DNA of 64,000 nt from Ardenticatenales bacterium (GTDB lineage Bacteria; Chloroflexota; Anaerolineae; Epilineales; Epilineaceae): positions 1,319-65,318 of the forward strand of contig JADYYS010000067.1 of NCBI GenBank assembly GCA_020853525.1, written 5' to 3'. The notes under the pieces were generated by a model. The model was not told where the DNA came from, made no database searches, and saw only the letters and a list, made by a program, of their open reading frames with translations. Numbering within the stretch: the stretch's first letter is position 1; each line of letters starts with the position of its first letter. Positions 17,201 to 56,299 of this stretch are shown here, one piece after another. The translations under genes were made by a program, and so were the position numbers.

Positions 17201-18205
17201 CGCCGGGTTCGTCGTCGGCGTGGCGGTCGGGGTCTGTGTCGCCGTCGGCGTGGGCGTCGCCGTGCTCGTCGCCGTTTCCGTCGGCGTCGAGGTCGACGTG
17301 GATGTCGGCGTCGCCGTCGGTGTCGGGGTGGCGACGACGATCACGACGAACACGCTGGCGTCCGGTCGGTCGCAGTTCGGCGCGGCGTCGAGGTTGGGGT
17401 CGTGGTTGTCGGTCGCCCAAAGCAGGTTCAGCGCGCTTGGGTCGCCGATCGCCGCGCGGGAGACGTACATGTCGACGAAGTCGCCCGTGACGGCGTAACC
17501 GACGGTGCTGTTCGTCGTGTTGCCCTGTGGCCCGCCGGCCCCGGCCGTTCCCGTGCCGAGCACGCGCTGCCAGTCGGCGCTGCCGATCGCGTTGTTCGTG
17601 TAATCGGGCGGATTGTTCGAACCCCATCGGGCGGAGAAGCCGGCGTTCAGGAGATCGTCCATGAACGTCAGCTCGCCCAGCTGGTTTCGGCCGAGCGTGC
17701 AGTCCGCCGGGACGCAGAGGTCCTCGAGGTTCAGCAGGTACTCGGCGTCGTTGATGTTGCCGCCGGAGATCGTGGCGTCGCTGCCGACGGTGTCCAGGAA
17801 CCACTTGTAACGGGCCTGGCCCTGGCTGTCGGCGCTCGGCCAGCCCGCCGGATCGATGTTCTCCATCCGCAGGTAGAGGTACGCGCTGTCGACCGCGTAG
17901 AACGTCGAGATCACGTCGCGGTGGTCGTTGCAGCCGCTCTCCGCCGCGTCGACGACGATCGGCGTCCACGTCGTCGGCCACGCCGCAAACGCCGCGGCCC
18001 GCCGGATCGCGTTCGGTGCCGGCCGCGGACGGCCGTGCTGCCCGTTCGAGGTGGCGATCCCTTGCGCCGATCGTGAACCGACCACCGCCCAAAGGCGCTG
18101 GCCTGCAATCCCGACGACGAGTGCCAGGACGAGCGCCGCGAGCGCGGCGAACGGAGCGGCGGGTGACGGCAGGCGAAAAGCGGGGCGCTGGTCGCGCTTG
18201 ACCAT
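11234..18205 (-). CDS. Giant secreted multi-domain protein (2323 aa). Order of parts: a signal peptide; a conserved ~230-aa N-terminal domain shared with the protein at 53625..56042; a Thr/Pro-rich linker; 2 DUF11/TIGR01451-type repeats; a long Thr/Pro linker; 2 SdrD/CnaB-like domains; and a ~1350-aa internally duplicated module of unknown function
   Basis: The ORF-track protein begins [26 protein letters not shown] (signal). It contains [32 protein letters not shown] and [21 protein letters not shown] twice. It contains a long [17 protein letters not shown]... linker. It contains [35 protein letters not shown] (CnaB/SdrD-like). The C-terminal 1350 aa are homologous to the N-terminal module of the next gene. 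The overlapping plus-strand ORF 11078..18076 is a low-complexity antisense artifact. Confidence 0.85.
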
Positions 18206-24400: not shown

Positions 24401-27400
24401 CCGGCCACCGGGGCGGCCGTCGAGGCCACCTTCGTGATCGAGAGGTCGGCCAGGTCGACCGGCACCGTCACGTCGCGGGTGTTGATGTAGATGTCATCCG
24501 TGTTCGCCGGGTCATAGAAGACCTTGACGCGCGTCGGCTGACCGAGCGGGCAGGCGCCGTCGAAGTAGCCGACGGTGATGTTGTCCTCGTCGTCGAAGAC
24601 GTGCACCTGCGGCGGGTTCGGGTTGTTCACCGGCGGGATGATCCCGAGCGGCGGGGCCCAGGTGTCGCCGGCGGCGCTGATGTCCGTGTGGTCGAGCGCC
24701 GGCGGGTTGAACTCGTTCGGCCCCGGGCCGGGGAAGAACGGGCCGGGCTCGTCGCGCGTGCAGCCGTAGAACGCCAGCTTGCTCACGGGCGACGTCCAGC
24801 CGAGCGTCAGGAGGTACTTCTGGCCCTCCGGCACCCGGATGGCGGTGAAGTTCGACGGCGTGACCATGAGCTGGTGGGTGTTCCAGCCCGTGCGCGTGTT
24901 CTGACCGGTTACCGCCGGCGCGAAGGTCTCGCGCAGCTCGGTGTGCAGCCGCGTCTCGTCCGTCTCTTCGAGGATCGTCTCGACCATCGGATCGGCGGCG
25001 GCAAGCTCGCCCACACAGCTCAGGTAGCCGTTCTGGAAGGCGAAGTCGATCGGCGCCAAGCGGTCGATGTCCAGCGCCAGCGTGTGCTGGAAGTTGAACG
25101 GCGGCAGAACGGACATCTCCGCCGGCAACCCGTTCAGGAAGTAGCCCTGATAGAACAGGGAGTCCTGCGGGTTGATGAAGTTGCCCTTCGGCACCGGGGT
25201 GCGGATCGTGATGAACGCGAAGTTGTCGTTGCACAGTCCGGCCGCGCCGCTGTTCTCGGTCATCAGCGCCACGACGTTGTACTCGTGGCCGTCGACGTAG
25301 AAGCGCTTGAGGTACCACGGGTCGCCCGGCAGGAGATCGTGGCTGCCGTTGCCGTCGTCGATCGCCGAGTGGGTGCCGCCGAGGGCGCGGCCGACGGTCA
25401 ATGTCACGCGGTCGCCGGAAGGCGCGACGTCCTCGACGAACGCGAACCAGGCACCGTCGGGGGCGATGTTCGCCTCGCCCGGGCCGACGATCGTCACGCG
25501 GTCCTGGAAGCGGTCGACGAGCACGGCGTCGCCGATGTCGAGCGTCCGGATGCCGCCGACCGCCTCGGGACGGGCGTTGTTCGGGTTGCCGCCGGTGAAG
25601 AACAGGCGGAACTGGGCGCGCGTGTTGGGCGTGACGTTGTTGAGCGTGATGAGGTAGTCCAGGAACTGGGCGTTGTGGCCCTCGGGCGTGTTCGGATCGA
25701 GATCGAGCGTCAGGCTCTGTACGGCGAAGACCGCCATCTCGTTCCCGTTCAGCGCCTGGCAGTCGGCGTCGAGCGCGTCCTGGACGCCGTCGCCGTCGAA
25801 GTCGAGCACCGGGCCGGCGAGCGGCGTCACGGGGACGCCAGGCAATGTCGGGCGGTTGGACTGCCACTGCTGGTCCAGGTACTGGTTCAGCGTCTGCTCG
25901 GAGTGGATGTTCGATGCGTCGCTGTAGCCGTCGAAGTTCGCGTCGAACGTCGTCAAGCCGTAGCCGAACTGGCCGCCCGCCGGCAGCGTGCCGTTCGGGT
26001 TGGGCGCGGGCAGATCACCGGCGCGCGAGCCGACCGGGAAGGCGATCCGGCTCGAACCGGGCGGCACGCCGGTCGGGTTGTCGGTCGTGTCCATCATCAG
26101 GAACGTGTATTCCTGGACGATCGCCGGGAACTTCAGGTCGCGTTGGCAGTCATCCGTGAAGCGCAGCTTGTCGACCCAGTCCGGCTGGTACCACGTGCGG
26201 TGGTACACCTTCTCACGGGCGTTCTGCGCACCGTTCGAGATCTGCTGGTACAGCTCGCGGAGCGGCTCGTTGAAGTTGCGGAACTCGTCCATGTAGGCCG
26301 GGTTGAACGTCAGCGAGTCCGTGCGCGGCGCATGCGGGTGCTGCGGGTTGAACGGCGCGAACGGGTCGGTGTACGGCGGCACCTCGACCGGATACGCCGC
26401 CAGGCCCGAAATCGGGTCCGTGGCCACGCCGGTGTCGCCTGCGCCGAAGAGGATCGACGGGCGGCTGATGATGCCGTTGCACTCCAGGTCGTCGCAGACC
26501 GGGAAGCCGCCGTACAGCCGGAGGCCGTCGTTGTTCGCGGTCAGCTTGCCCTTGTTGTCGTCGGGGTCGTGGATGAAGGTGACGCGGCGCGGTGAGCCGT
26601 AGCTGCCCGTGACCGGGTCGAAGACCGTCTCGTCGATCTGCAGGTCGGGCGGGGTCGGCGGCTGATCCTCGGGCACCGAGCCGTCGGGCATCCGCCACAG
26701 CCGCCAGCGCGCGGTATCGTTCGTGAAGCCGCTCGTCACCAGGTAGTTGTCCGGATCGCACGCCGGCACACCGCCGGCCACGGGCGCCCCGGCCTGGTCG
26801 GGCAGGACGAACTCGGTGTAGCGCCACGGCTGGGTGAACACCTGCTCGTTGTAGAAGAAGCTCTGCGGGATCCCGGGCGGCTGCGGCACGCCCGGTGCCG
26901 TGTTCAGCGCGCCGTACTTCTCCCGGATCTGGCCGATGAACGGCTCGTAGCCCTCTTCCTCGGTGTAGAACCAGTGGCTGGCGAAGTAGTTGTCGTATGG
27001 GCCGACCGCGCGCTGCGGGTCGCGGCCGGTGTATACGAGCGCGTCGCTCTGCGCCAGGACGGGCGGCATCGGGCCCATCGGGCCGCCCATGTAGAGGATC
27101 TCGGGGCGCGCGACCTCGTCGTCGCCGGGCAGGATCGGGCAGAGATCGAAGCCCTTGAAGTCGATGACATCCTCGAGGATCGTGTGCTCGTGGTTGAACG
27201 GCGGCGGCAGCACGAGCGGCTCGAGCACACCGTAGCCCTCGAGGCGCACGGAGTGCTGCTCGATCGTCACGTCGACCTTCGGCAGGGGCGAGCGGAGGGT
27301 GATGTACTGGATGGCGTTGGTGGCGCACGTCATGATCGCCACGACGTTGTACTCGTGGCCGTCGACGTAAAAGCGCTTGAGCCACCACGGGCCGCCGGGC

Positions 27401-28809
27401 GAGCGGTTCGCCACGTTCGGCGTCGATTCCATCGACGCGCACGGCGCGCCGAGCGCACGGCCGAGGACGACGGTCACCGTGCCGTCGACGGCGTCGGTGC
27501 CCTGGACGTAGACGAAGAATGGGCCGATCGGCATCTGGCCGAGGAGGTTCGCGCCGGGCTGGACGACCTGCAGCGGGCCGACGTCGGCCGCCAGCGCCAT
27601 GCCGTTGACGCCGATCGAGCGGACCTGGACGAGGCGCGGTCGGAGGTCGCCGTTGTACCAGACCTCGAGCACGGCGGCCTGCGACGAAACGTTGCGGACG
27701 CGCACGAAGTGGTCGAGGAACTGGACGGTGCTGCCGCTGTGGATCGTCATCGAGTCCGTCGAGAGGACGACCATCTCGTCGCACGAGAGCGCGACGCCGT
27801 CCGTGTTCACGTTGTCCAGGACGTTGTCGCCGTCGAAGTCGACGGTGATCCCGGAATCGGCGGCCTGCGTGATCTCGCTGCCGACGTTCACCATGTCGTT
27901 CATGCCGTCGAAGTCGACATCGAGGCTCGTGAGACCGTCGCCGCTGAGCGGCCCGGCCGGGTCGGTCGCGCCCAGCGACGTGCCGACGGGGAAGACGAAC
28001 CGCGTCTCACCGGCGCGGCCGCAGATCGGGCGCGGGGCGCTGTCGTCCAGGCGATCCGGGTCGGGATGGGCCACCGGCAGCTCGTTGTCGAGGAGCTGAT
28101 AGGTGAACTCGGTCATGATCGCCGGGTACCACTCGTCCTGGTTGGACGGCGTCGGGTTGACGGCGGCATCCGGCGTCCCGTTGTTGTTGCTGTCCGTCAG
28201 GCAGTCGTCGGAGTTGAGGTCCTTGTCGAGGCGGGTCGGCTCGTACCAGTGGCGGAGCCAGACCTTCTCCGAACCGTTCACGCCCGACGCGCGGATGTTC
28301 GAATCGCGCGAGACCTCGTCGGCGGCGCGCAGGCAGTTCCACTGTGCCCGGAACGGGGCTTCGTTCAACCGCTCCGAGATCCAGGCCGGATCCCAGGTGA
28401 CGTAGTCGAACTCGGGCGCCTCGGTCGAGAGCGGGCTGAACGGTCCCGTCGGATCCGTGTACGGCGGATCCTCCGGCACGTTCTGCGTGTTCGGGTCGAG
28501 GATGGTGTTCGAACCCGCCGTCGCCGGCCGGTTGCCCTCCCCGATGATGCACGAGTTGCAGACCGTGGTGTAGCCGTACAACCGCAGCGTGTCGATCCGC
28601 TCGGTGATGTCGGCCAGCGGAGCGGCGGCGGGGGAGGCGGCGGGGGCTGCGGCAGGCGCCGCACCGGCCATGCCGGCACCCAGGCCGAGGCCGCCCGCCA
28701 TGGCAACGGTCACGGCCATGCAGGCACGCCAGACAGCCGCGCTCCGCGAGCGCGCCTCCGGACGACGGTCGGTTGCCAGACGGGTGGACTGCGAGCGGGA
28801 CTGACTCAT
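18487..28809 (-). CDS. Giant secreted multi-domain protein (~3440 aa). Order of parts: a signal peptide; a ~1350-aa internally duplicated module of unknown function; about 20 DUF11 repeats; an FN3-like domain; a carboxypeptidase-regulatory-like domain; a duplicated dockerin-type Ca-binding segment; and a C-terminal cohesin-like beta-sandwich
   Basis: ORF-track protein 18487..28887. I place the start at 28809 (MSQSRSQS..MAVTVAMAGGLGLGAGMAGAAPA signal) because a GGAGGAG Shine-Dalgarno-like motif sits 7 nt upstream. DUF11 units are of the type DLSITKVASTAAPVAGGELVYTISVTNNGPDAVTDVTVRDVLPEGVTYV. The FN3 hallmark TSYTFRVSARD is present. Dockerin-like segments are GDTDNNTNINLFDLVRVGANY and DCNADHEVNLFDLVLVGTNYG. 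The cohesin-like segment reads GDVVLFTIEFQVLKD. Confidence 0.85.
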   Translation of the reverse strand: MSQSRSQSTRLATDRRPEARSRSAAVWRACMAVTVAMAGGLGLGAGMAGAAPAAAPAASPAAAPLADITERIDTLRLYGYTTVCNSCIIGEGNRPATAGSNTILDPNTQNVPEDPPYTDPTGPFSPLSTEAPEFDYVTWDPAWISERLNEAPFRAQWNCLRAADEVSRDSNIRASGVNGSEKVWLRHWYEPTRLDKDLNSDDCLTDSNNNGTPDAAVNPTPSNQDEWYPAIMTEFTYQLLDNELPVAHPDPDRLDDSAPRPICGRAGETRFVFPVGTSLGATDPAGPLSGDGLTSLDVDFDGMNDMVNVGSEITQAADSGITVDFDGDNVLDNVNTDGVALSCDEMVVLSTDSMTIHSGSTVQFLDHFVRVRNVSSQAAVLEVWYNGDLRPRLVQVRSIGVNGMALAADVGPLQVVQPGANLLGQMPIGPFFVYVQGTDAVDGTVTVVLGRALGAPCASMESTPNVANRSPGGPWWLKRFYVDGHEYNVVAIMTCATNAIQYITLRSPLPKVDVTIEQHSVRLEGYGVLEPLVLPPPFNHEHTILEDVIDFKGFDLCPILPGDDEVARPEILYMGGPMGPMPPVLAQSDALVYTGRDPQRAVGPYDNYFASHWFYTEEEGYEPFIGQIREKYGALNTAPGVPQPPGIPQSFFYNEQVFTQPWRYTEFVLPDQAGAPVAGGVPACDPDNYLVTSGFTNDTARWRLWRMPDGSVPEDQPPTPPDLQIDETVFDPVTGSYGSPRRVTFIHDPDDNKGKLTANNDGLRLYGGFPVCDDLECNGIISRPSILFGAGDTGVATDPISGLAAYPVEVPPYTDPFAPFNPQHPHAPRTDSLTFNPAYMDEFRNFNEPLRELYQQISNGAQNAREKVYHRTWYQPDWVDKLRFTDDCQRDLKFPAIVQEYTFLMMDTTDNPTGVPPGSSRIAFPVGSRAGDLPAPNPNGTLPAGGQFGYGLTTFDANFDGYSDASNIHSEQTLNQYLDQQWQSNRPTLPGVPVTPLAGPVLDFDGDGVQDALDADCQALNGNEMAVFAVQSLTLDLDPNTPEGHNAQFLDYLITLNNVTPNTRAQFRLFFTGGNPNNARPEAVGGIRTLDIGDAVLVDRFQDRVTIVGPGEANIAPDGAWFAFVEDVAPSGDRVTLTVGRALGGTHSAIDDGNGSHDLLPGDPWYLKRFYVDGHEYNVVALMTENSGAAGLCNDNFAFITIRTPVPKGNFINPQDSLFYQGYFLNGLPAEMSVLPPFNFQHTLALDIDRLAPIDFAFQNGYLSCVGELAAADPMVETILEETDETRLHTELRETFAPAVTGQNTRTGWNTHQLMVTPSNFTAIRVPEGQKYLLTLGWTSPVSKLAFYGCTRDEPGPFFPGPGPNEFNPPALDHTDISAAGDTWAPPLGIIPPVNNPNPPQVHVFDDEDNITVGYFDGACPLGQPTRVKVFYDPANTDDIYINTRDVTVPVDLADLSITKVASTAAPVAGGELVYTISVTNNGPDAVTDVTVRDVLPEGVTYVSDTDGCVEGPVGTLTCTFGSIAVGQTRSFTVTVRLDMEIPVGTVLVNTATVSSTSTLDPNLANNSATAVVTTTRAADLAIAKSASIITPRPGDQVVFQLLVTNNGPSDATNVHIIDTLPVGLNYVASNGACVQGPPNTINCTIGTLAAGASAAVAITVQVAPGALTGTILTNSAAVQSNTPDPTLGNNQAQAAVIVAAAADLRLEKSASAGPYTAGGNVTFTLVASNFGPSAVANAQVTDVLPVGMTYVSDDAGCVQAPPGTLTCNLGAIASGGSRTFHVVAKINADVAPGASLNNTAVVSAAGVSDPVPANNTSSATVIAVASADLRITKSAPPSVVAGGTLVYTINVINGGPSNAMNVVVVDTLPAGVTYVSDTGGCVQAPVGTLTCTLGDIAVGVTRTFTITVTVGGLAQGTQLVNIAGVDSDTPDPDGGNSSSTTTTTVGGASSADLSLTKTGPTSVQAGNTVNYTLAVNNAGPSTATGVTLNDTLPAGTTFVGSIPPVCSLNPPASSNLQCAMGSIVSGGSAAVVVTIQTTAGQANTTLTNTASVTSSTPDPAPGNNNASAQTSVTPASGTSADLAITKAGPAQILAGQQIAYQLTVTNNGPNTANNVLVNDVLPLDTEFVSTTNPNGCTSGGGSTRLCALGSLLSGQAAQFTIIVDVDDDALTGTQLINSASVSSATVDPTPGNNTASATTLVTGSAQGADLRLTKTSPTITVTPGTMHAFNLLIENLGPANAPSVIVTDNLPAGMTYQSDTAGPGATSACIQSPVRTLTCSLGALNSGQSRLFTMTVLINANVPNGAQLTNVASVAHGKALLASTLDADAPDRLNTEDPNPGNNQDDDTVEAVRSADISVDKDASSVQPPPGAQVTFTVQVKNSGPSDAATVTLTDALPSGMTYVSDSQTCGAAALAAGCNIGPLANGQTKTVTIVAQVGQNVQPGTVLTNNASATSSEPDPDVTDNADSAFVIVSQPTNDADLAIDKTASDPTPLSGEAITFDLKVTNNGPAAAQNVVVADTLPAQVTAGTLPPACSLAAATVTCNLGNIANGTTVVVQIPVTVGAGLASGTQFSNTATVTSGTPDPAPANNSDTVALVVETPSQNVNLAVQKTASDSQPVAGTTIQYTIEVKNLGPGTANNVVLTDNLPTGTSLVDNDGGCTATGQTLTCNLGSVADDSTRTIHVNVAIPASATQGQQFVNTASVATSSPDTDPNNNQVNNTVTARRVADLSIEKSANPAIVTAGGQVVFGLQVDNLGPSNTGPVTVVDTLPPGLTHVSNSGGCNVSGQTLTCTIPSIQAGGFATIQVTAGIGAGASGSVTNSASVSSPATDPVPANNNDSVTIQITVAQAADVRITKAVNVASPAQQGGLVTYDFTVHNDGPGAATNVVVTDQLPAQVTHESNTTGCQIAGQTLTCNLGTVNSGQTRTFQVVVRIGHNTAAGTQVTNTAHVAAQTPDPNAANNTSAATFTVTAAPPPPLNAACNVLPGGSQVRVTWVDSSNFETEFNVEVSFNGSSYIPLATVPSTTQVGTGTAYSYQTPDLLANTSYTFRVSARDSVTGQVSAASVPTDGCTTVPQPAEKTSCIRGYMNLQGRSDHTGAVVYVDGVPAGVSGPNGYFSICGVPKGEHRLSADAACYLGADQMFRVSGGQPFDLPFTSLPGGDTDNNTNINLFDLVRVGANYRTSPPSDIRADCNADHEVNLFDLVLVGTNYGRSGAVPFGYNGEENGAAFFSDPTAPATERAVAKALRGVLPTAVLRATGLPEGAPAERPDGPTDVALNVRAVDEETIAVDVVAKGVWNMYGADIKVRFDTQKVKVIDALEGSGVQVKPGAAWQADGPSFVAMNTVDPAGEIRFAAARMRPANGLYGDVVLFTIEFQVLKDAVDSAWNVDSALLADPSGKTIETKIDGQKIEALLDRNAFVGRALLPALYRGYSMR

Positions 28810-28892
28810 CTGTGGCTCCTCCGGTTCGAAGAAGGCCCGTCTGGCCCTGGGGGGGACGGATCGGGGCGGGACCTCAAGCGCGCACAAACACG

Positions 28893-44187: not shown

Positions 44188-44402
44188 CGTCTGCGCTCCT
44201 GGGTCGTGTCGGTCGCTTCCGAGCGGCGCAAGTTGTGGCGGCCGAACGTGAGGGTGTAAGCATATCGGACTCACACGGGGCGTTCAATCGCCCCCTCTCC
44301 GGACGTCCGATTGCCCGACGCGACGGTCGATGATACCGTGACGTGTGCGCAGCGGAGCCGCGCCGCGCCGCCCAATGGAGCAGGAGCGTGACGCCGCCGC
44401 GC

Positions 44403-44972
44403 ATGCCCAAGACGATCGCGTTTCTGCGTGCAATCAACGTCGGCGGCCACAACGTCAAGATGGAGCAGCTGCGGGCGCTGTTCGAACAGCTCGGCTTCGA
44501 CGCCGTCGAGACGTTCATCGCCAGCGGGAACGTCGTCTTCGAGACGGACGCGGCGCCCGATGCGGGCCTCGAAGCCGACATCGAGGCTCACCTGAAGGCG
44601 GCGCTCGGCTACGAGGTGGCGACGTTCCTGCGCACGGACGCCGAGGTCGCGGCCGTCGCGGCGTACGAGCCGCTGCCGGCGGTCGCGATGGCCGGCGTCG
44701 CCGCGTTCAACGTCGGCTTCCTGACGTCGCCGCTGACGGCCGACGAGAAGGCGGTTCTCGCCGGATTCAACAACGACATCGACGACTTCCACAGCCACGG
44801 CCGCGAGGTCTACTGGCTGTGCCGCACGAAGCAGAGCGACTCGAAGTTCAACAACAACGCCTTCGAGCGCGCGCTGCGGCGCCGGGCGACGTTCCGCGGG
44901 CGGAATACGGTGCTGCGGCTGGCGGCGAAGTACCCGCCTTCGAGCGCGGTCACAGCCTCCGGCAGCCCGTGA
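44403..44972 (+). CDS. DUF1697 family protein
   Basis: The N-terminus MPKTIAFLRAINVGGHNVKMEQLRALFEQLGF matches the conserved DUF1697 start. Confidence 0.8.
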   Translation: MPKTIAFLRAINVGGHNVKMEQLRALFEQLGFDAVETFIASGNVVFETDAAPDAGLEADIEAHLKAALGYEVATFLRTDAEVAAVAAYEPLPAVAMAGVAAFNVGFLTSPLTADEKAVLAGFNNDIDDFHSHGREVYWLCRTKQSDSKFNNNAFERALRRRATFRGRNTVLRLAAKYPPSSAVTASGSP

Positions 44973-45168: not shown

Positions 45169-45540
45169 ATGAAACGCCCCAGAAACCACACGATCGCCGC
45201 CGTGATCCAGTTCGCCGCCAGCGTTTTCAGTGTCGTCACCGGCGCGCAGGCGCTGATGCCGGGCTCGTCGATCGCCGAGGTGATCCCGTTCCCGGTGCTC
45301 CTCCTCGGCTTTGCCCTCGGCGCGATCGGCCTCGTCTCGGCCTATGGCATCTGGCAGAACCAGCGCTGGGGCGTCATCCTGACGATCTTCATCCGCGCGC
45401 TGGACGGGCTGTCGGCCGCGCCGGGCATCCTCTTCGCCCCCAACCCGATGCTGAAGACGATGGCCAGCCTGGGCGTCGTCATCTCGATCGCCGTCATCGC
45501 CCTGCTCCTCTGGCCGAAGCCGCGGCCGGTGACGGCCTAG
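45169..45540 (+). CDS. Small integral membrane protein (4 predicted TM segments)
   Basis: An AGGAG Shine-Dalgarno-like motif sits upstream of the ATG. The protein contains hydrophobic helices. Confidence 0.5.
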   Translation: MKRPRNHTIAAVIQFAASVFSVVTGAQALMPGSSIAEVIPFPVLLLGFALGAIGLVSAYGIWQNQRWGVILTIFIRALDGLSAAPGILFAPNPMLKTMASLGVVISIAVIALLLWPKPRPVTA

Positions 45541-45573: not shown

Positions 45574-46809
45574 GTGCGCCGCAGCCCGTCCGCCGACGCC
45601 TGGCTGAGCGGCCTGCTGCTCTACTTCCTCCTGGGGAACTACGTCTTCGTCGTCTACGTCGTCGTCCTGGCGCTCGGCGGGATCGACAACGACACCAGCC
45701 AGGTGCCGTGGTGGCTGAACGCGATCAGCCTGCCGATCGTCATCCTGACCGTGCGTCCGCTCCGCGGCTGGCTGCGCAAGGGCATCCACAGCGTCGTCTA
45801 CGGCCAGCACGACGACCCGTACGCCGTCCTGGCCGAGGTCCACGACCGCGTCGACGCCGACCCGGCCCCGGCGGCGATGGTGCCGGCGATCGCCGCGGCG
45901 ATCGCCCAGAGCCTCAAGCTGCCGTACGTGGCGATCGAAACGAACCTCGGCGCGGCGCCGCTGACGGCGGTCAGCGGCGCCCCCGTCGACGGCGCCGACA
46001 CGACGACGATCCCGCTGGCCTACCATGACACGACCGTCGGCGCGCTGCTCGTCTCGGCGCGCCGGCCGGGCGAGCCGTTGTCCGCGGCGGACACGAGGCT
46101 GCTGCACGATCTCGCCCGCCAGGTCGGGATCACGCTGCACGCCGCGCAGCTGACGGATGCGCTGCAGGCGTCCCGCCGCCAGATCGTCACGGCCCGCGAA
46201 GAGGAGCGTCGGCGGATCCGGCGCGATCTGCACGACGGTCTCGGCCCGACGCTGGCGTCGCTGCGGATGCAGCTGAGCGCGCTCCGCGCGGTGCTCGACG
46301 ACGACCCGGCCGCCCAAGCGCTCATCGACAGCCTGCGCGACGACGTGCGCGCCGCCACGGCCGACATCCGCCGCCTGGTGTACGACCTCCGGCCGCCGAT
46401 GCTCGACGAGTTTGGACTGGCGGGCGCGCTGCGCAACCTGGGCGCGTCCGACCCGCACGCCGCCGCGGAACGAACCGTCGACGTGCCGGAGGCGATGCCG
46501 CCGCTGCCGGCCGCCGTCGAGGTCGCGCTCTACCGCATCGCCGCCGAAGCGCTGCACAATGTCGACCGCCACGCGCACGCACGGACGTGCGTGGTCCGGC
46601 TCGACGCGTCGCCGACGGCGCTGACGCTGACGATCGCCGATGACGGCGTCGGGATCGGCGACGGCTGCCGGCCGGGCGTCGGCTTCGCCTCGATGCGCGA
46701 GCGGGCGGCCGAGCTGGGCGGAACGCTCACCCGAACGTCTTTGCAGGGTGCCGGCACCGTCGTCACGGCCACGATTCCGCTGGAAGGAAGGTTGGCAGGA
46801 CCGGCATGA
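45574..46809 (+). CDS. Sensor histidine kinase, NarL/LuxR-type (HisKA_3 + HATPase), membrane-anchored
   Basis: N-terminal TM segments are present. The H-box reads EERRRIRRDLHDGLGPTLASLRMQL. The ATP-binding G-boxes DDGVGIG and GVGFASMRERAAELGGTL are present. It has a GTG start. Confidence 0.85.
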   Translation: MRRSPSADAWLSGLLLYFLLGNYVFVVYVVVLALGGIDNDTSQVPWWLNAISLPIVILTVRPLRGWLRKGIHSVVYGQHDDPYAVLAEVHDRVDADPAPAAMVPAIAAAIAQSLKLPYVAIETNLGAAPLTAVSGAPVDGADTTTIPLAYHDTTVGALLVSARRPGEPLSAADTRLLHDLARQVGITLHAAQLTDALQASRRQIVTAREEERRRIRRDLHDGLGPTLASLRMQLSALRAVLDDDPAAQALIDSLRDDVRAATADIRRLVYDLRPPMLDEFGLAGALRNLGASDPHAAAERTVDVPEAMPPLPAAVEVALYRIAAEALHNVDRHAHARTCVVRLDASPTALTLTIADDGVGIGDGCRPGVGFASMRERAAELGGTLTRTSLQGAGTVVTATIPLEGRLAGPA

Positions 46810-47456
46810 CGACCCTCGAACCGCTCCGACTGCTCATCGTCGACGACCATCCGCTGTTTCGCAAGGGGCTGCGAGCGCTCCTGGCCACCGTACCGGGCGT
46901 GGCGGTCGTCGGCGAGGCGGCGGGCGGCGACGAGGGCGTGCAGCTGGTGGGCGAGCTCGGGCCGCACGTCGTGCTGATGGACCTCCAGATGCCCGAGGGC
47001 GATGGTCTCTCGGCCATGCGCCGGATCACGGCCGCCCACCCGGACGTCCGCGTTCTCGTCGTCACGATGTTCGAGGACGACGATTCCGTCTTCGCCGCAC
47101 TGCGGGCCGGCGCACGCGGCTACGTCCTCAAGGACATGGATGACGCCGAGATGACCCGCGCGATCCTGGCGGTCGGCCACGGCGAGGCGATCTTCAGCCC
47201 GGCGATCGCCGAGCGGATGATCACGTTCTTCGGCACGCCGCCCGCGACGCCCTCGCCAACCTTCCCCGAGCTGACGGACAGCGAGCGGAACGTCCTGCGG
47301 CTCATGGCGCGCGGCCTGAAGAACGACGCGATCGCCGTCCAACTGTCGCTGAGCCCGAAGACGGTGCGCAACTACATCAGCAGCATCTTCAGCAAGCTGC
47401 AGGTGGACGATCGCGGGCAGGCGATCGTGCGGGCGCGGGATGCGCGGTTGGACTGA
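46806..47456 (+). CDS. Response regulator, NarL/LuxR family (REC + HTH)
   Basis: The receiver reads LRLLIVDDHPLFRKGLRALL. The LuxR HTH reads LTDSERNVLRLMARGLKNDAIAVQLSLSPKTVRNYISSIFSKL. The ATG overlaps the kinase stop (ATGA). Confidence 0.9.
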   Translation: MTTLEPLRLLIVDDHPLFRKGLRALLATVPGVAVVGEAAGGDEGVQLVGELGPHVVLMDLQMPEGDGLSAMRRITAAHPDVRVLVVTMFEDDDSVFAALRAGARGYVLKDMDDAEMTRAILAVGHGEAIFSPAIAERMITFFGTPPATPSPTFPELTDSERNVLRLMARGLKNDAIAVQLSLSPKTVRNYISSIFSKLQVDDRGQAIVRARDARLD

Positions 47457-47529
47457 TTGTGGTTTATCCTTCCGGCACGGCCGCCGCGCTCGAAGGCGCG
47501 CGATCCAAAGCGACAGCGCCTCACCGGGG

Positions 47530-49260
47530 ATGGATGACGTGACGGTTCCGAACATGCGACGCTGGCTCGGTTGGACGATGCTCGGGGCGGCGACGACCGT
47601 CGCGATCGGTTGGCGCGCGGTGCTGGCCGCGCCGGATGACGGCAGCGCCACGGACATCACGACCGCCGCCGATTTCGGCGCGCCCGCGTCCGCGCCCTCG
47701 GCCGCGATGTGCCTCGCCGGTCCCGGCGCGGCCGGCCATGTGCCCATGCTGCGCGGGTTCACGCATGCCCAGCAGGCCGGCGCGTACCGCGATGCGGTTG
47801 CGCTCGACGCGATCGCCCGCGGCGCTTCGGCGAGCGCCGACGACGCCGGTCCGGGACTGGTCTTCTTGCCGCTCGCGCTCCGCCTGTCCGTCGGCTTCGC
47901 CACGCTGCCGACCGCCGTCCCGCCGTCGCCCGCCCCGCCGTCGCCCGTGCCCGCGACGGCCGCACCGACATCGCCGCCCGAGCCGACGGACGCGCCCGCG
48001 CCGCCCACCGCCGTCCCGCCGCCCGCCGCGTCCCCGACGACGCCCTCCGCCCTCACGTACTGGCGCGATATCCGCCCGATCCTGAACGCCGAGTGCGCCA
48101 CGTGCCACGTGGCGGGCGGCATCGGGCCGTTTGCGCTCGAGGCGTACGCCGACGCAGCGGCGCACGCGGCCGAGATGGCCTATGTCATCGAGCGGAAGAT
48201 CATGCCGCCCCTGCCCGCCGTCCCGGACGGCGAGACGCCGCTGGACGACCCGCGCGTGATGGCGGCGGGCGACCGCGCCAAGGTGCTCGAGTGGCTGGCG
48301 GCCGGCCTGCCCGAGGGCGACCCGTCGACGGCGCCGCCCGATGCGCCCAAGCCGGACGACTACGGCCCGCCCGACATCACGCTGGACATCGGCGCCAACT
48401 ACACCACGAAGGCAGGCAAGCTGGACGATTACCGCTGCTTCGTCATCGATCCCGGCTTCCGCCGGGACACCGAGGTCCGGATGGTGGACGTGATGCCGAC
48501 GAACAGCCGGATCTACCACCACGGCATCCTCTACCTGGCCCTGGCCGGCGACGCCGCCAAGCTCAAGCAGCTCGAGGCCGAGGACCGCGAGCCGGGCTAC
48601 GAGTGCTTCGGCGGACCCGGCGCCGGCACGGGCGAGTGGGTCGTCGGCGAAGCGGTAGGGCGTTTGACGCGGCCGTACCCGGACGGGACGGCCAAGGTGA
48701 TCCCGGCCGGCGCCAAGTTCGTCCTCCAGCTCCACTACAACACGCTGAACGGCCACGGGAGCGATCGGACGAAAGTCCTGCTCTGGACGGCGCCCCGCCC
48801 GGTGAACCGCGCGCCGGTCGACGTTCGACTCGTGAACTTCCTGTTCAACCTCCCGCCCGGCAACCCGAAGGTCAGCGTCACCGCCGAGGCGAACGTCGTG
48901 GCCGGCGGCCAGGACGGCGGCTTGCTGCGCATCACGGCGCCCGAGGGCAAGCTCTGGCAGGTCTGGGGCCACATGCACATGCTCGGCAGCGCGTTCACGC
49001 TCGACCTCATCCAGCCGAACGGCACGAAGCGCCGCCTGCTGGACATCCCGGACTGGGCGTTCAACTGGCAGGGCGTCTACGACCTCGTCACACCCATCGA
49101 CCTGAAGGCCGGCGACCGCATCCTCATGACGTGCACCTGGGACAACTCCCAGGCGAACCAGCCGTACGTGGACGGCAAGCAGCAGGCACCGCGGGTGGTG
49201 CGGTGGGGGGAGGGGACGTTGGATGAGATGTGTCTGGGGGGGGTGACGGTGACGCGGTAG
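47530..49260 (+). CDS. Secreted fusion protein with a PSCyt-like mono-heme cytochrome c domain (CXXCH) and a copper type II ascorbate-dependent monooxygenase-like domain
   Basis: A signal peptide is present. The cytochrome segment reads WRDIRPILNAECATCHVAGGIGPFAL and carries a CXXCH motif. The copper-site-like motifs are IYHHGILY (HH), GHMHMLG (HxH) and downstream Met residues. The start is ambiguous (47530 or 47554). Confidence 0.55.
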   Translation: MDDVTVPNMRRWLGWTMLGAATTVAIGWRAVLAAPDDGSATDITTAADFGAPASAPSAAMCLAGPGAAGHVPMLRGFTHAQQAGAYRDAVALDAIARGASASADDAGPGLVFLPLALRLSVGFATLPTAVPPSPAPPSPVPATAAPTSPPEPTDAPAPPTAVPPPAASPTTPSALTYWRDIRPILNAECATCHVAGGIGPFALEAYADAAAHAAEMAYVIERKIMPPLPAVPDGETPLDDPRVMAAGDRAKVLEWLAAGLPEGDPSTAPPDAPKPDDYGPPDITLDIGANYTTKAGKLDDYRCFVIDPGFRRDTEVRMVDVMPTNSRIYHHGILYLALAGDAAKLKQLEAEDREPGYECFGGPGAGTGEWVVGEAVGRLTRPYPDGTAKVIPAGAKFVLQLHYNTLNGHGSDRTKVLLWTAPRPVNRAPVDVRLVNFLFNLPPGNPKVSVTAEANVVAGGQDGGLLRITAPEGKLWQVWGHMHMLGSAFTLDLIQPNGTKRRLLDIPDWAFNWQGVYDLVTPIDLKAGDRILMTCTWDNSQANQPYVDGKQQAPRVVRWGEGTLDEMCLGGVTVTR

Positions 49261-49293: not shown

Positions 49294-49650
49294 TTACCGC
49301 ACTGGGCGTCCGAAGCGGACCCGCCCCTCAGCCACTACGACGAACTGTTCCGCCAAGCGTTCTGAATGGTCGTGCAGCAAGGATCGAAGCGTCGCGATCT
49401 TGACGTCCACCCGCTCGTCGCCCAATCGGAGCAGGACGACGCCGTGATGCGGAACCCGTTCGCGATAGATCTTCTCACCGAAGTCCTTGTCGTTTGTAAT
49501 CAGGATGCGACGCTCATCGAACGCACGCCGAATCACGTCATCGTCAATGAGACCGCGTGCATCGTCGAAGACCGAGTACGCGTCGTGGCCTTGCTCGCGT
49601 AGCCATCGGGCCACCACCGGTCCCGTGCTTTCATCGACCATGAAGCGCAC
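49294..49650 (-). CDS. DUF5615 (PIN-like) putative toxin of a DUF433/DUF5615 pair
   Basis: The protein reads MRFMVDESTGPVVARWLREQGHDAYSVFDD..ILITNDKDFGE. It sits immediately downstream of the DUF433 gene with an abutting stop/start. Confidence 0.7.
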   Translation of the reverse strand: MRFMVDESTGPVVARWLREQGHDAYSVFDDARGLIDDDVIRRAFDERRILITNDKDFGEKIYRERVPHHGVVLLRLGDERVDVKIATLRSLLHDHSERLAEQFVVVAEGRVRFGRPVR

Positions 49651-49899
49651 CTAGGCCGTCTCCGTCACGAGGGGCATGTAGGTGGTGTCCTCCAGCGCGT
49701 GCGACGCGAAGAGTAGGCACGCCCGCACGTCATCCGTGGTGATGCCGTCGTATTCGGCAAGTATGTCCGCCACCGACGATCCGTGTGCCAGTCGTTTGAG
49801 GATGTACTCCACGGCCAGCCGTGTTCCTCGAATGACCGGCTTACCTGCCAGGACGCGGGGGTCAACCGATATCCGCTCCGCCAACTCCCGATCTTCCAT
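49651..49899 (-). CDS. DUF433 domain protein (putative antitoxin partner)
   Basis: The protein reads RISVDPRVLAGKPVIRGTRLAVEYILKRLAHGSSVADILAEY..ITTDDVRACLLFA. Confidence 0.75.
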   Translation of the reverse strand: MEDRELAERISVDPRVLAGKPVIRGTRLAVEYILKRLAHGSSVADILAEYDGITTDDVRACLLFASHALEDTTYMPLVTETA

Positions 49900-51271: not shown

Positions 51272-51704
51272 CTATTCAGGCGCCGGCAACAACTCAAACG
51301 CCCCCCGATGCCGCGGCCGGACGACCCCGAAGTGCCGGTGATCCAACGTCAGGATCGTGCCGATGTTCAGGCGCTCGGCGACGGCGACGATGACGGCATC
51401 GACGAAGTCGAGGCCGCTGTCGCCGTACTTGGTCATGATCTCGGCGGTTCGGCGATAGTCCGCCAAGTTGGGCTCGAGGAGGGCGAATGACGTGCTGCCT
51501 TGGCCGGCAAGGTCGACGAAGACTGTAGCCGCACTGCGACCGATTCGACCGGACAGCACAAAGCAGATCTCGGCCAGCGCCGATGATGGCAACCAGGGCG
51601 TCGTGCGCAACGTGCGGGCCGTCCGCGCGACGAGCGCATGATCGGGATCCCTCGGGTTGACCAGGCTCACGATGAAGCTCGTATCAGCGATGCTCGTTGT
51701 CACG
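51272..51704 (-). CDS. vapC: VapC-type PIN-domain toxin
   Basis: The PIN domain reads IADTSFIVSLVNPRDPDH..GLDFVDAVIVAVAERLNIGTILTLDHRHF. A GTG start at 51704 overlaps the vapB stop, and GAGAGGA lies upstream. Confidence 0.7.
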
Positions 51705-51956
51705 CCGGATCCTCTCGTGCTTCGCGAGAACGATCTCTCCGAAGATCTCCTCTGCTTCCCTCCCAAGCGGCGCGGCAGGCCCGTCGAAGATCCCGATCAA
51801 CGCTTCCATCGGCGACCCCTCCGTCTCGCCCGACTCCGCCACGTACGTCCCCACCGCCTCCCGGATGAGCAGCGACGTCGTCGTCCCTCGGCGCCGTGCA
51901 AGCTCCTGCAGGCGCGCGTACATCTCCTCGTCGAACATGACCGTAGTGCGTTTCAT
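51684..51956 (-). CDS. vapB: Ribbon-helix-helix (CopG/VapB-like) antitoxin
   Basis: The protein reads MKRTTVMFDEEMYARLQELARRRGTTTSLLIREAVGTYV. The track ORF 51684..52406 is over-extended at the 5' end. Confidence 0.7.
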   Translation of the reverse strand: MKRTTVMFDEEMYARLQELARRRGTTTSLLIREAVGTYVAESGETEGSPMEALIGIFDGPAAPLGREAEEIFGEIVLAKHERIRRDNEHR

Positions 51957-52161
51957 CGTGTCCTCCTCGTCGATCGTGTGGATATGCTGCCATATATGGC
52001 GCTGGCGGAGAAGCTGGCACGTCACCTCCCAATCGCCGCCCGCTTCGCCGCCCGCTTCGCCGCCCGCACCGCTCAACGCACGCCCGGCGCGCGTATCATC
52101 GTTGACCGACGAGCCACGGCACCGCCGTCGAGCGGCCACCCGACCCAACCCGGAGCTCGCC

Positions 52162-53649
52162 ATGACACTGCACCGAACGCGCCCGATCCGCAGCGCCCTC
52201 TCCCTCGCCCTCTCCCTCGCCCTCTCCACCGCCCTCTCCACCGCCTTCGCCATCGCGTTGTCCCTCGCCCTCGCCCTACCCGCCGCCCGCGTCGCCCACG
52301 CCCACGGCCCCGATGTGCTCGACGTCAGCGCGCGCAACATCGCACCAAGCGACATCGACGTCCAGACCAGCGACGCACAGGCCGCCGACCCGCCGATCCC
52401 CGCCACGACGTCCCTCGCGACGTGGCGCTACAACCACGACGCCCACCGCGGCGCCTACCGCCTGTCGAGCGGCGCCGCCGGCACGAACCTGGCCGACGTT
52501 CAGCAGCTCTGGTTCGATGCCGCCAGCATCTTCGTCCGCGCCTCCGGCATCCCGGCCTACGACATCGGCCCGTTCGCCGACGGCAATCCGAACGTGCCGG
52601 GCGAGCAGGACTACGTCTACCGCCTGCCGCTGGACGCCGCCTTGGAGACCGGCACACCCCGCGCCACGGGGCTCGGCAGCATCGGGACGTTCGTGAACGG
52701 CGTGCCGATCTACAACGCGCTCGACGCCTGGTCGTACAGCGCCGCGGCGGGGCGCGACGCGCCGAACATGGGCGGCATGGGCGGGCAGCGGGGCGACCGC
52801 ATCTGGAACCGCAACGCCGCGCTGGCGGAGCGGCGCGGGTTCGACGCCTGCCTCGGCCACCCTGCCCGCGGACAGGCACAGGGCGCCGGCGCCGCCAACG
52901 GCCGCTACCACCACCACATCGACCCGACCTGCCTGCGCGCCGCCCTCGGCGACGACGACGTGATGCGCCACTCGCCGATCATCGGCTGGGCGTTCGACGG
53001 GTTCCCGCTCTACGGTCCTTACGGCTACGCCGACGCGAACGACGCATCGAGCACCGTCCGCCGGATGCGCTCGAGCTACCGCCCGCGGGACATCGCCGCC
53101 CGCACGACCCTGGCCGACGGCTCGGCCGTGCCCGCCGCGCAAACCGGCCCGCCCGTCGGCGGCGCGTTCCCGCTGGGCTGGTACGTCGAGGACTTCACGT
53201 TCGCCGCAGGCTCGGGCGACCTCGACGCCTTCAACGGGCGCTGGACCCGCACGCCGGAGTTCCCGGACGGCATCTACGCCTACTTCACCACGCTCGACGA
53301 CGCCGGCGAGCCCGCCTACCCCTACCTCATCGGCCCGCGCTACCGCGGCCGCGTGGCTGCCGACAACCTCGGGCCGGGCGGGCGCGTGGTGGTACCGACG
53401 GGCGCCGCGACGTTCGTTCCGCCGGTTGCGACGGACGTGCCCCGCAACGCGACGGCGGGCCCGAGCCCGTCGTCGACCGGTGCGCCGTCCGCTGAGCCGA
53501 CGCCGACGAAGCCGCCGACGACTGCGCCCACCGCCGCCATCCCAACAGCGACGACCGCTTCACCCATCGTCCCGTGCTACCTGCCGTGGGCCGGCCGGCT
53601 CCCGTCGGCCGGAGTCGAGGCGCGTCAGCGCTCCGCCGCGATCAGGTAA
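52162..53649 (+). CDS. Secreted YHYH-domain protein with a Pro/Thr-rich C-terminal tail
   Basis: A signal peptide is present ([26 protein letters not shown]). The hallmark motifs GRYHHHIDP and [15 protein letters not shown] are present. The start is at 52162 within track ORF 51697..53649. Confidence 0.85.
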
Positions 53650-56042
53650 GCCCCGCTCACCGGATCCCGTCCGACGGCGATCATCGCCCGCCGGATCGCC
53701 GACGTCACCGTGCCGCCGGCCGACAGCTCGGCCACGAGCTCGAGCGTGGCCCGATCCGTGTGGCCGGCCGAGACCTCGTCGCTCCAGCCGATGACCGCCC
53801 GCGCCCCGCGGGCCAGGAATGCCTCGCTCATCGCCACGCCGCGCAGGCTGTCGCAGCCCATCAGAACCACCACGGCATCGTCGCGGAACGAACCGTCGAG
53901 GTGGTCGCGGATGAACGTCGCGCCGAGGCCGTTGTAGGGCCGCGGGTCCGAGCCGACGGTGCGCCGGACGGGCACGAGGGCGCCGATCTCGGCCGGCGTC
54001 AGGCGGGTCGCCGGTGGGTTCGACCCCGTCCCCGGCGATGCGGGCAACATGGGCCACGACGGCGACGGACCCTGGACCAGCCCCGTCACGGCGAAGCGGC
54101 TCAGATCGACCGGCTCGTTCGTGAACAGCGCCACGTCGTCCGTCCAGCGGCCGTCGTCCACGATCAGCGCCGAGTGGACCCGCAGCACGATGAGCGAAGC
54201 GCCGTCCGCCGGCAGCGACCGGAAACGGCCGACCGTCGCCTCGTCCGACGGCACGACCCGCAGGTCGCTGCCCGCGCCCCCGATCACCGCCGCGAGGTCG
54301 CGTTGGAACCGCGAGCCCGGCTGGATCGCGCCGAGCTGATCGACAAGAAGCACCCGCGGCGCGCTCTCCGGACGCCCGCGCCGCGCCCCGGCGAACTGCG
54401 CGACGTGCCCGAGGAGCCGACGGATCAGCGTCTCCCCGCCCGCCGCCAGCGGCACGAGGGCGCCCATGGACATCCCGCCCACCATGACGGGCGGCTCGTG
54501 CGGCGGGCCGTGGCGCGCCGGCGGGTCGGTCGGACCGAACGGCGGGCCGGGAACGATCGGCACGCACCGCGGCGGACAGCGGGGCGTGCTCGTCGGCGTC
54601 GACGTGGCGGTCAAGGTGACCGTCGGTGTGCGCGTCGCCGTCCGGGTTGCGGTCGGCGTGCGCGTCGGCGTCGGCGTGGACGTCCGCGTCGCCGTCCGCG
54701 TTGCCGTCGACGTGCGGGTCGCCGTCGGGGTGAACGTCGGAGTTGCCGTCGGCGTCAGGGTACGCGTGGCGGTCGGCGTCCGCGTTGGCGTAGCGGTTCG
54801 CGTGGCGGTCGGCGTGCGGGTGAGGGTTGACGTCGACGTCGGGGTGACGGTCGGCGACAACGTGGGCGTTCGCGTCGGGGTGACGGTCGCGGTCGGCGTC
54901 CGCGTCGGCGTGCTGGAAGGTGTCGGCGTCCGCGTCCGTGTCGGCGTCGACGTGGACGTGCGCGTCGCGGTCGGCGATAGGGTCGGGGTGCGCGTCGGCG
55001 TCCGGGTGGAGGTGGCCGTGCGCGTGGGCGTCGGCGTGACGGTGGGCGTCAACGTGCGCGTGGACGTCGGTGTGCGGGTGGGCGTCAACGTGCGCGTGGG
55101 TGTCGCCGTGCGCGTCGGCGTGTCCGTCGGGGTCGGCGACCACGACGGGGTGGCCGACGGGGTGAACGTCTGCGTCGGCGTCGGCGTGCGCGTCGGGGTG
55201 TTCGACGGCGTCGGCGTGGATGACGCGGTCAACGACGGGGTGGGCGACGGCGTCGGGAGCTGGAGGACGATGCAGTTGCCGTCGTCGATGCGGTCGCAGT
55301 CGGGCGCTTGGTCGAGGTTGTTGTCGTGGAAGTCGGTCGCCCACATCACCCGGAACAGGAGCGGGCTGCCGAGCGCGCTTCGCCGGACGAACATGTCGAC
55401 GTTCGTCCCGGTGATCTCGTAGCCGATGTCGAGGTTCCCCTCGGCCGCCTGCGGACCTCCGGTCCCGGCCGTCCCCGTGCCGAGCACGCGAGTCCACAGT
55501 GAGCTGGCCGGCGCGTTCGTCGTGTACCCCGGCGGGCTCCCGCCGCCCCAGCGCGTCGCGAAGCCGACGTTGGCCAGATCGTCCATCAACGTCAGCTCGC
55601 CAAGTTGGTCGCGGCCGAGCGTCGGGTCGGGCGGCACCGTGCGGTCCTCGAGCATGAGCAGGTACTCGGCGTCGACCATGTTGCCGCCGGACGTCACGCC
55701 GTCGCCGTTCGTGTCGAAGAACCACTTGTAGCGCGCCTCGCCGGTCGGGCCGGTGTTCGGCCAGCCGGCCGGATCGACGTTCTGGAGCCGCAGGTAGAGG
55801 TACTCGGCGTCGACGGCGGCGTAGGCGCGGAAGACGTTGCGGTGATCACCGCAACCCGGCTCGTCGGGGTCGGTGCCGATGGACGTCCAGATGGCCGGCC
55901 AACCGACGAATTGCCGGCGAGCGGCGCTGGACAGGTTCGCCGTCCGGGCATTCGCCAGGCCGATCATGGCTGCAACCACGGATACGCAGGCGATGACCAC
56001 TCCGGTCGGACCGATCCAACGGTGCACGCCGCGTCCTCCCAT
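53625..56042 (-). CDS. Secreted protein. It has an N-terminal ~230-aa conserved domain paralogous to the N-terminus of the 11234..18205 giant protein, a ~200-aa Thr/Pro linker, and a C-terminal putative caspase-fold (clan CD, C25/C11/C13-like) cysteine peptidase-like domain
   Basis: The N-domain [85 protein letters not shown] aligns residue-by-residue with giant protein 2. The linker reads [28 protein letters not shown]... The C-terminus has a His strand [12 protein letters not shown] and a Cys strand [12 protein letters not shown] reminiscent of a caspase-like dyad. The start is chosen at [26 protein letters not shown] (56042). Confidence 0.7.
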
Positions 56043-56299
56043 GTCGATCACCCCGGGACAGCAGGGCGGTCGGATCGCCAGCATAACACAAAAATAACCA
56101 CCGGCGCAAGCGGTCATCCAAGCCGATTCCAACGCACGCCAGGAACGCCCGTGCGGTCGCATGGTGCCGGCCGCGTGTTCGCCGCGGCCACACCAATCAT
56201 CGCCGCCCGGTGTCGCGTATCACCACTGAATCACCCATGCGGCCTCCGACTCGCCGGACCGGCCGCACCCCACAGTGATGAGACATTCGGAGGATTGCC

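Follow-up and report, generated by a model that had tools for sequence, protein, structure and literature searches.

The DNA considered here, which we refer to as the window, is a 64,000-nucleotide stretch from an Ardenticatenales bacterium of the Chloroflexota (assembly GCA_020853525.1, contig JADYYS010000067.1, positions 1,319 to 65,318 of the forward strand) with about 70% G+C. We investigated a gene within it, at 47530..49260, whose predicted product joins a cytochrome c-like domain to a two-copper core related to the animal monooxygenases PHM (peptidylglycine monooxygenase) and DBH (dopamine beta-hydroxylase). A preliminary description of the window had proposed a fusion of this kind, and the open reading frame (ORF) and all of the motifs it quoted are located where it had placed them, with IRPILNAECATCHVAGGIGPFAL at 48070-48138, IYHHGILY at 48511-48534, and GHMHMLG at 48967-48987. 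A DEMC motif lies at 49222-49233, and a third histidine of the electron-accepting copper site (CuH), absent from that description, is found in LQLHYN at 48724-48741. The longest ORF frame opens at 47440 and runs into the end of a response-regulator gene, and the monooxygenase start is likely to be either ATG 47530, as previously chosen, or ATG 47554; a homolog with 95% identity (P0001) starts MTVPNMRRW. The third-position GC of the ORF (47440..49260, + strand) is 0.92, as in real genes of the window, and a search returned 146 homologs with E values down to 0, so that together with the invariant motifs described below the ORF and its motifs are far beyond chance. Residues are numbered from ATG 47530, which corresponds to the numbering of the alignment and of the AlphaFold model plus 9. 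The features of the gene are as follows, with CuM denoting the oxygen-activating copper site:

47530..49260, + strand: whole gene, predicted exported cytochrome c / PHM-like copper monooxygenase fusion, 576 amino acids (aa); alternative ATG at 47554
47557..47625, + strand: N-terminal hydrophobic helix RRWLGWTMLGAATTVAIGWRAVLAA, signal peptide or signal anchor, residues ~10-32; predicted helix at model residues 2-23
47626..47934, + strand: clade-specific extension, mostly disordered, residues ~33-135; seen in the alignment only in a Chloroflexota-like subgroup
47935..48051, + strand: Pro/Ala/Thr-rich linker, residues ~136-174, composition read from the translation
48052..48342, + strand: one-heme cytochrome c-like domain, residues ~175-271; CATCH at 48094-48108, MPP at 48202-48210
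48364..48801, + strand: CuH (electron-accepting copper) beta-sandwich domain; H330/H331 at 48517-48522, H402 at 48733-48735
48802..49257, + strand: CuM (oxygen-activating copper) beta-sandwich domain; H481 at 48970-48972, H483 at 48976-48978, M567 at 49228-49230

The C-terminal region (residues ~279-576) is made up of two beta-sandwich domains. A search of the PDB with the single sequence gave nothing significant and a profile search was needed, in which the profile of a 30-sequence alignment of homologs matches rat PHM (E=6.7e-14) and human DBH (E=8.5e-11). In this profile alignment H330/H331/H402 align with PHM H107/H108/H172, and H481/H483/M567 with H242/H244/M314, through the paired segments VHHM/VHH, LQVHY/LQxHY, HTHHLG/HMHxLG, and DEMC/DEMC (PHM and family, respectively). 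All six copper ligands are invariant in the 30 homologs, at identities down to 29%, as are the CxxCH, MPP, HH, QxHY, HxH, and DEMC motifs that contain the proposed heme and copper ligands, and a further invariant motif that is specific to the family, W-x-F-x-W-Q, is present in the CuM domain at 49054-49071. Y301 and Q400, both also invariant, align with PHM Y79 and Q170, which sit on a proposed electron-transfer path (PMC12164859). When 120 homologs were scored with strict patterns, 110 carry every motif; the other ten include four pattern variants in which the ligands are preserved, one C-terminally divergent sequence that lacks DEMC (P0106), and a remainder that are apparently truncated, and the heme motif and copper ligands are present in at least 114 of the 120.

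Pfam Cu2_monoox_C (PF03712) is a bare pass on the window protein (23.2-23.4 bits versus a cutoff of 23) and there is no match to the Cu2_monooxygen N-domain (PF01082), while at E<=0.01 the former is found in 30 of 30 homologs and the latter in 15 of 30. The AlphaFold2 model has a mean predicted local distance difference test score (pLDDT) of 78, with values >90 across most of the core, and its top PDB matches are DBH (4zel, E=6.8e-13) and about 30 PHM entries. These DBH and PHM matches span E values of 7e-13 to 6e-09 with template modelling scores of 0.60-0.69 normalised by PHM length, and the first unrelated fold ranks only at E~1e-4. Both structure and profile comparison thus place the C-terminal domain in a copper family whose His and Met ligands are conserved in homologs, and the spacing of these ligands resembles that of PHM (71/79/84 residues here versus 64/70/70). 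The agreement of sequence profiles, ligand conservation, and predicted structure bears out the earlier proposal of a cytochrome c module fused to a PHM/DBH-like two-copper domain, and assignment of the core to the PHM/DBH-type two-domain copper monooxygenase fold is supported by alignment and model together.

The shared fold and six shared copper ligands, together with the name 'ascorbate-dependent monooxygenase' among database entries, raise the possibility that this is a true functional orthologue of animal PHM or of dopamine/tyramine beta-hydroxylase, served by a small-molecule reductant. The residues expected to hold the substrate argue otherwise. PHM binds the carboxylate of its peptide substrate via R240, aided by N316 and Y318 (PMC12164859). 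The R240-equivalent of the window protein, two residues before the first CuM His, is Trp, and across the 30 aligned sequences this position is occupied by W, A, F, P, L, G, S, or M, but never by Arg. Counting without gaps from the aligned M314-C315 puts N316 and Y318 at +1 and +3 after the DEMC cysteine, where the window protein has a nearly invariant Leu and a Gly, respectively. Moreover, Pfam gives no DOMON match in the protein at E<=1 and no PAL/NHL or dimerisation domain, no PAL is present in the neighbouring genes, and identity to PHM and DBH in the structural matches is 14-18%. Because R240, N316, and Y318 are all replaced and both DOMON and PAL are lacking, the protein is by sequence neither a PHM nor a DBH orthologue, and its substrate is predicted to be something other than a glycine-extended peptide. 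Bacteria are generally not known to synthesize ascorbate, and the cytochrome fusion is obligate in the family (see below), and we therefore regard orthology in function to the animal enzymes as improbable in the extreme.

The cytochrome c-like domain contains the heme motif C189-A-T-C192-H193, with a proposed axial ligand, M225 of the MPP motif, 32 residues downstream. The C, C, and H of the heme motif and MPP are invariant in all 30 aligned sequences, and the CxxCH-to-MPP distance across the family is 31-37 residues. The AlphaFold model of this domain, which was built without heme, has a pLDDT of 87.7 and shows an N-terminal helix ending at CxxCH, followed by the Met and a C-terminal helix; the segment after the Met, L-x-D-x-x-R-x-x-L-x-x-W, resembles the helix found at the C-terminus of small class I cytochromes. 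Pfam Cytochrome_CBB3 matches 15 of the 30 homologs at E<=0.01 (best E=1.2e-4), and the family profile matches PccH (4rlr) at E=9.8e-5, with the match confined to the heme motif. Judged from these conserved positions, the N-terminal domain is likely to bind heme c. The label 'PSCyt-like' that had been attached to it does not hold, as there is no Pfam PSCyt match in the window protein (E<=1) or in any of the 30 homologs (E<=0.01), and the likeness to PSCyt is restricted to a short RPIL...C..CH motif.

Far from being a rarity of the window, this arrangement is how the members of a very large family of bacterial proteins are normally built. An HMMER scan of 1.84 billion representative proteins returned 1558 clusters at E<=1e-30 and 4966 at E<=1e-10, and a scan of one genome per GTDB species yielded at least 577 confirmed loci. 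In the best 150 representative clusters, every member that is not a fragment has an alignment beginning where the cytochrome domain begins, and the same is true of all 80 GTDB loci; on the strength of these alignments the cytochrome c fusion is obligate across the family. In 110 sequences the heme His and the CuH His-His pair are 134-146 residues apart, although no such constraint is seen on the N-terminal regions, and the fixed heme-to-CuH distance in sequence therefore fits a fixed donor-acceptor geometry between the domains. Viewed at the level of sequence, what sets this branch apart within the PHM/DBH superfamily is that the cytochrome c fusion is obligate and the substrate site altered.

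The matches listed include members from Myxococcota, Planctomycetota, Armatimonadota, Acidobacteriota, Deinococcota, Chloroflexota, Actinomycetota (Gaiellales), Verrucomicrobiota, and Bdellovibrionota, and among them are the cultured hosts Sorangium cellulosum So ce56, Nannocystis exedens, Enhygromyxa salina, Polyangium fumosum, and Lujinxingia vulgaris. The closest named genome among the listed matches is Candidatus Epilinea brevis (Chloroflexota), at 53% identity, and the 95%-identical copy originates from a wastewater metagenome. Family members carry the database names 'monooxygenase', 'hypothetical protein', 'mono/diheme cytochrome c family protein', and 'Copper type II ascorbate-dependent monooxygenase', or are named after the Pfam domain; the cytochrome-fused architecture is already visible in public annotation, and the window protein is one ordinary member of the family. 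In some homologs (P0101 and P0105) the cytochrome c-monooxygenase is preceded by a fused N-terminal YceI-like domain (Pfam PF04264, E=3e-17). YceI proteins have been reported to bind polyisoprenoids, and this fusion may hint at the substrate class. Several representatives (P0141, of 1251 aa, P0144, P0156, P0187, and P0245) are 830-1250 aa long and are matched by the query in two stretches, so that they apparently contain tandem or duplicated modules.

Several features fit a location outside the cytoplasm, with the protein either membrane-anchored or secreted. We base this prediction on the N-terminal hydrophobic helix, on the lipoprotein-like leaders with a terminal Cys that replace it in homologs from diderm bacteria (myxobacterial and others) in the alignment, and on conserved Cys pairs. 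The latter align with PHM C81/C126 and C293/C315 and are conserved in the 30-sequence alignment; in PHM both pairs are disulfide-bonded. A location of this kind is also needed for heme to be attached covalently. The clade-specific extension has no family match over 47626-47934 and contains one confident amphipathic helix (pLDDT 85-87 at model residues 70-90) with values <50 elsewhere; a Cys and an H-[VTM]-P motif, both semi-conserved, stand ahead of the predicted helix. The extension could possibly be a docking or metal-handling element. The linker that follows has a pLDDT of about 50 or lower (<50 at model residues 135-147), and an NCBIfam BimA match to its Pro/Ala-rich sequence was rejected as a low-complexity false match.

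Our preferred interpretation, which we hold to be reasonably probable from the sequence and model, is that the protein is an ascorbate-independent extracytoplasmic copper hydroxylase that is reduced by its own cytochrome c domain. The heme c domain, ligated by His193 and Met225, would take single electrons from extracytoplasmic carriers and pass them to CuH (H330/H331/H402), and CuM (H481/H483/M567) would bind and activate O2 and hydroxylate a C-H bond of the bound substrate. The fused cytochrome would then stand in for ascorbate, the reductant of the animal enzymes. In this scheme the presence of bound heme and copper, the direction in which electrons move, the oxygenase chemistry, and the electron source are inferred. 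It had been suggested that such an enzyme would be 'self-sufficient', and this would apply in a restricted sense, as the heme domain would still need an external source of electrons.

Two genes of a two-component system lie directly upstream of the monooxygenase, and were identified by Pfam:

45574..46809, + strand: histidine kinase with a GAF-like region, HisKA_3, and HATPase_c; two transmembrane segments read from the sequence
46806..47456, + strand: NarL/LuxR-type response regulator with REC and GerE domains

The regulator stop and the monooxygenase ATG at 47530 are on the same strand and are separated by 73 nucleotides, in which a simple scan finds no terminator-like site; co-transcription of the monooxygenase with the two-component system is therefore possible. 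In view of this position, and of the retention of the arrangement in the relative with 95% identity, the protein could be a non-catalytic copper-binding or copper-handling protein, or a sensor output, under the control of the adjacent system. We examined the neighbourhoods of seven loci via called genes, and all ORFs of 88 loci by all-against-all BLASTP clustering. The two-component system is directly upstream as had been described, but a conserved link is not seen, since it is kept only in the 95% relative (L008). It is absent beside L001 and L007 (70-75% relatives) and beside L002, L003, and L009 (the 49-53% relatives included). In L001 (3803-7840) and L007 (3350-7882) a protein of 1345-1510 aa is located upstream in its place, with no Pfam match beyond a DUF1697 segment in L007; in the window, DUF1697 is encoded by a gene of its own, at 44343-44972. 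Relatives at about 49-53% identity have unrelated neighbours, and myxobacterial and Deinococcales loci differ again.

Across the 88 loci, the recurrent neighbours are generic and at inconsistent positions (ABC ATPases, Ser/Thr kinases, histidine kinases, and sigma-54 activators), and antisense shadow ORFs of the monooxygenase gene also recur in the clustering. Kinase genes are near nine of the 88 loci at variable positions, which we judge to be background for these genomes. The two-component link was rejected as a family feature, given its absence from the 70-75% and 53% relatives and the lack of enrichment in the 88 loci, and it is therefore local and possibly incidental. Conservation of the heme domain, and of residues for catalysis and electron transfer beyond the metal ligands, favours redox catalysis. 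On both counts, a non-catalytic role in copper handling or sensing seems to us very improbable.

A different type of neighbour recurs in part of the family. Seventeen of the 88 loci (L014, L018, L020, L023, L024, L033, L036, L038, L053, L058, L063, L067, L071, L076, L083, L084, and L088) have a thioredoxin-fold domain of about 190 aa (Pfam Redoxin/AhpC-TSA) directly upstream of the monooxygenase; it is either translationally coupled, in a gene of its own with a stop codon that overlaps the start of the next, or part of the same protein as a fusion. An example of each arrangement is as follows, with the fused form present also in P0071:

L024, 5360-5944: thioredoxin-fold gene, followed by 5941-7320
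L020, 7360-9261: thioredoxin-fold/monooxygenase fusion

The domain has a single Cys in a C-P-I-A/S-N motif (FTLPDCPIAN) and a second conserved Cys near the C-terminus (AIGCxI), and the PDB entry that it matches best is 2ywi, a structural-genomics protein (E=2e-16). These properties suggest a thiol or peroxide partner. In the window, neither a thioredoxin-fold nor a YceI partner is present.

Several of these results weigh against a cytochrome-driven hydroxylase. The Cytochrome_CBB3 score of the window protein is weak (15.2 bits versus a cutoff of 27, E=0.028), and Foldseek with the cytochrome domain model gave no significant match (best E=2.1, all >2), the top non-significant matches at E>2 being to small class I cytochromes c (c-551, c6, and c-554). 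No conserved neighbour across the 88 loci points to a substrate or an electron donor, and full-text literature searches, made in part with loose queries, found no paper on bacterial PHM/DBH-like proteins or on the fusion. Finally, the thioredoxin-fold partner in about one-fifth of loci could reflect thiol or peroxide chemistry and not plain O2-dependent hydroxylation.

The last two of the genomic observations are also what would be expected if the protein were an electron sink or oxidase, in which respiratory electrons passed by the heme c domain to the copper pair reduce O2, H2O2, or a nitrogen oxide, or an H2O2-driven peroxygenase, with a role in envelope detoxification or redox balancing: a substrate-related neighbourhood is not conserved, and the AhpC/TSA-Redoxin-type domain upstream suggests a link to peroxide or thiols. 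In addition, the copper sites of PHM bind peroxide, nitrite, and CO (PDB titles; PMC12164859). Nonetheless, the full catalytic apparatus of PHM is invariant in the family, including the equivalents of Y79 and Q170, the invariant aromatic W-x-F-x-W-Q motif in the CuM domain is as expected for a defined substrate pocket, and no known PHM-fold enzyme acts as a simple oxidase or reductase. We therefore consider an oxidase or peroxygenase unlikely, and favour the hydroxylase reduced by its own cytochrome. Extended to the family as a whole, this interpretation would describe a very large and phylogenetically broad bacterial class of heme-c/dicopper monooxygenases that are wired to respiratory or extracytoplasmic carriers, independent of ascorbate, directed at a new class of substrates other than peptidylglycine, and provided with a 1-Cys thioredoxin-fold partner in about one-fifth of lineages; we see the balance for this wider generalization as even.

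The textbook examples of non-coupled two-copper monooxygenases are PHM and DBH. The route by which electrons arrive at CuH and cross the gap of ~11 Å to CuM is still debated, as is whether ascorbate has any role beyond reducing copper (PMC12164859). A natural counterpart from bacteria, with its own heme donor that can be monitored by spectroscopy, would offer a tractable system in which transfer from heme to CuH to CuM can be followed without ascorbate. It would probably also represent a new substrate class for the PHM/DBH fold and give a function to a family of thousands of proteins in soil, water, and wastewater bacteria that are labelled 'monooxygenase' or 'hypothetical', with a possible use as a hydroxylation catalyst powered by an electrode or a cytochrome. 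The gain from the window itself is modest, as it holds an ordinary family member in a genomic context that is silent on the substrate.

The remainder of the window is ordinary chromosome, including thrS-infC-rpmI-rplT, uvrC, and tRNA-Val, and a search of the window for a paralog of the monooxygenase found none. Directly downstream of the monooxygenase are two genes identified by Pfam:

49294-49650, - strand: DUF5615 (PIN-like / Mut7-C) gene
49651-49899, - strand: DUF433 gene

This pair is probably a toxin-antitoxin module, and L008, the 95% relative, has it as well. Another PIN gene (51272-51766), possibly accompanied by a small partner, is located 2 kb further on, and a His-rich protein of 650 aa with a YHYH domain (PF14240, E=3e-44) is encoded at 51697-53649 (+ strand), about 2.4 kb downstream of the monooxygenase. 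On the other side, shortly before the histidine kinase gene, 45169-45540 (+ strand) codes for a small membrane protein of 123 aa, probably with four transmembrane segments and without a Pfam match; in L008 this place is taken by an amino-acid permease and an 81-aa ORF. Two giant adjacent genes at 11234-18205 and 18487-28887 (both - strand) encode proteins of 2323 and 3466 aa, the former with SdrD B-like and SpaA domains and the latter with 12 DUF11 repeats together with DUF7507 and CARDB-like domains; these are presumably cell-surface or adhesin proteins. An 845-aa ORF at 53625-56162 (- strand) has a long Thr-Pro-rich repeat (TPTPT...) and no Pfam match, and possibly encodes a surface protein, with the gene call uncertain because of many overlapping alternative ORFs and high GC.

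Comparison with known systems places the window protein closest to the animal enzymes in its core and apart from them in its supply of electrons. With PHM (PDB 1PHM/1OPM) it shares the two beta-sandwich domains, the three-His CuH and the His2Met CuM sites, the equivalents of Y79 and Q170, the cysteines, and the ligand spacing. It differs in overall sequence (~16% identity) and in the peptidylglycine-binding residues, the PAL partner, and the ascorbate dependence that are characteristic of PHM, whereas the family is bacterial, has a fused heme c domain, and is predicted to be exported and anchored through a transmembrane helix or a lipoprotein leader. DBH, tyramine beta-monooxygenase, and MOXD1-2 (4ZEL) have the same catalytic core and provide the best structural match, but this group has an N-terminal DOMON and a C-terminal dimerisation domain, and the window protein has a cytochrome c N-terminal to the core instead.

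A precedent for the proposed electron donor is found among unrelated copper enzymes. CjX183, the c-type cytochrome domain of Cellvibrio japonicus Cbp2D, reduces bacterial lytic polysaccharide monooxygenases (LPMOs) of family AA10 (PMC8981238). By analogy, a small extracytoplasmic c-type cytochrome could replace ascorbate as the donor to a copper monooxygenase in the family described here as well, although LPMOs have a single histidine-brace copper in an unrelated fold and CjX183 belongs to a different protein from the enzyme that it reduces. In eukaryotes, cytochrome b561 regenerates the ascorbate used by DBH and PHM, such that heme proteins are also the ultimate supply of electrons for CuH. 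That route is indirect, passing from a transmembrane b-type heme via ascorbate, whereas in the window protein and its relatives the heme is predicted to be c-type and fused to the enzyme, and is presumed to reduce CuH directly.

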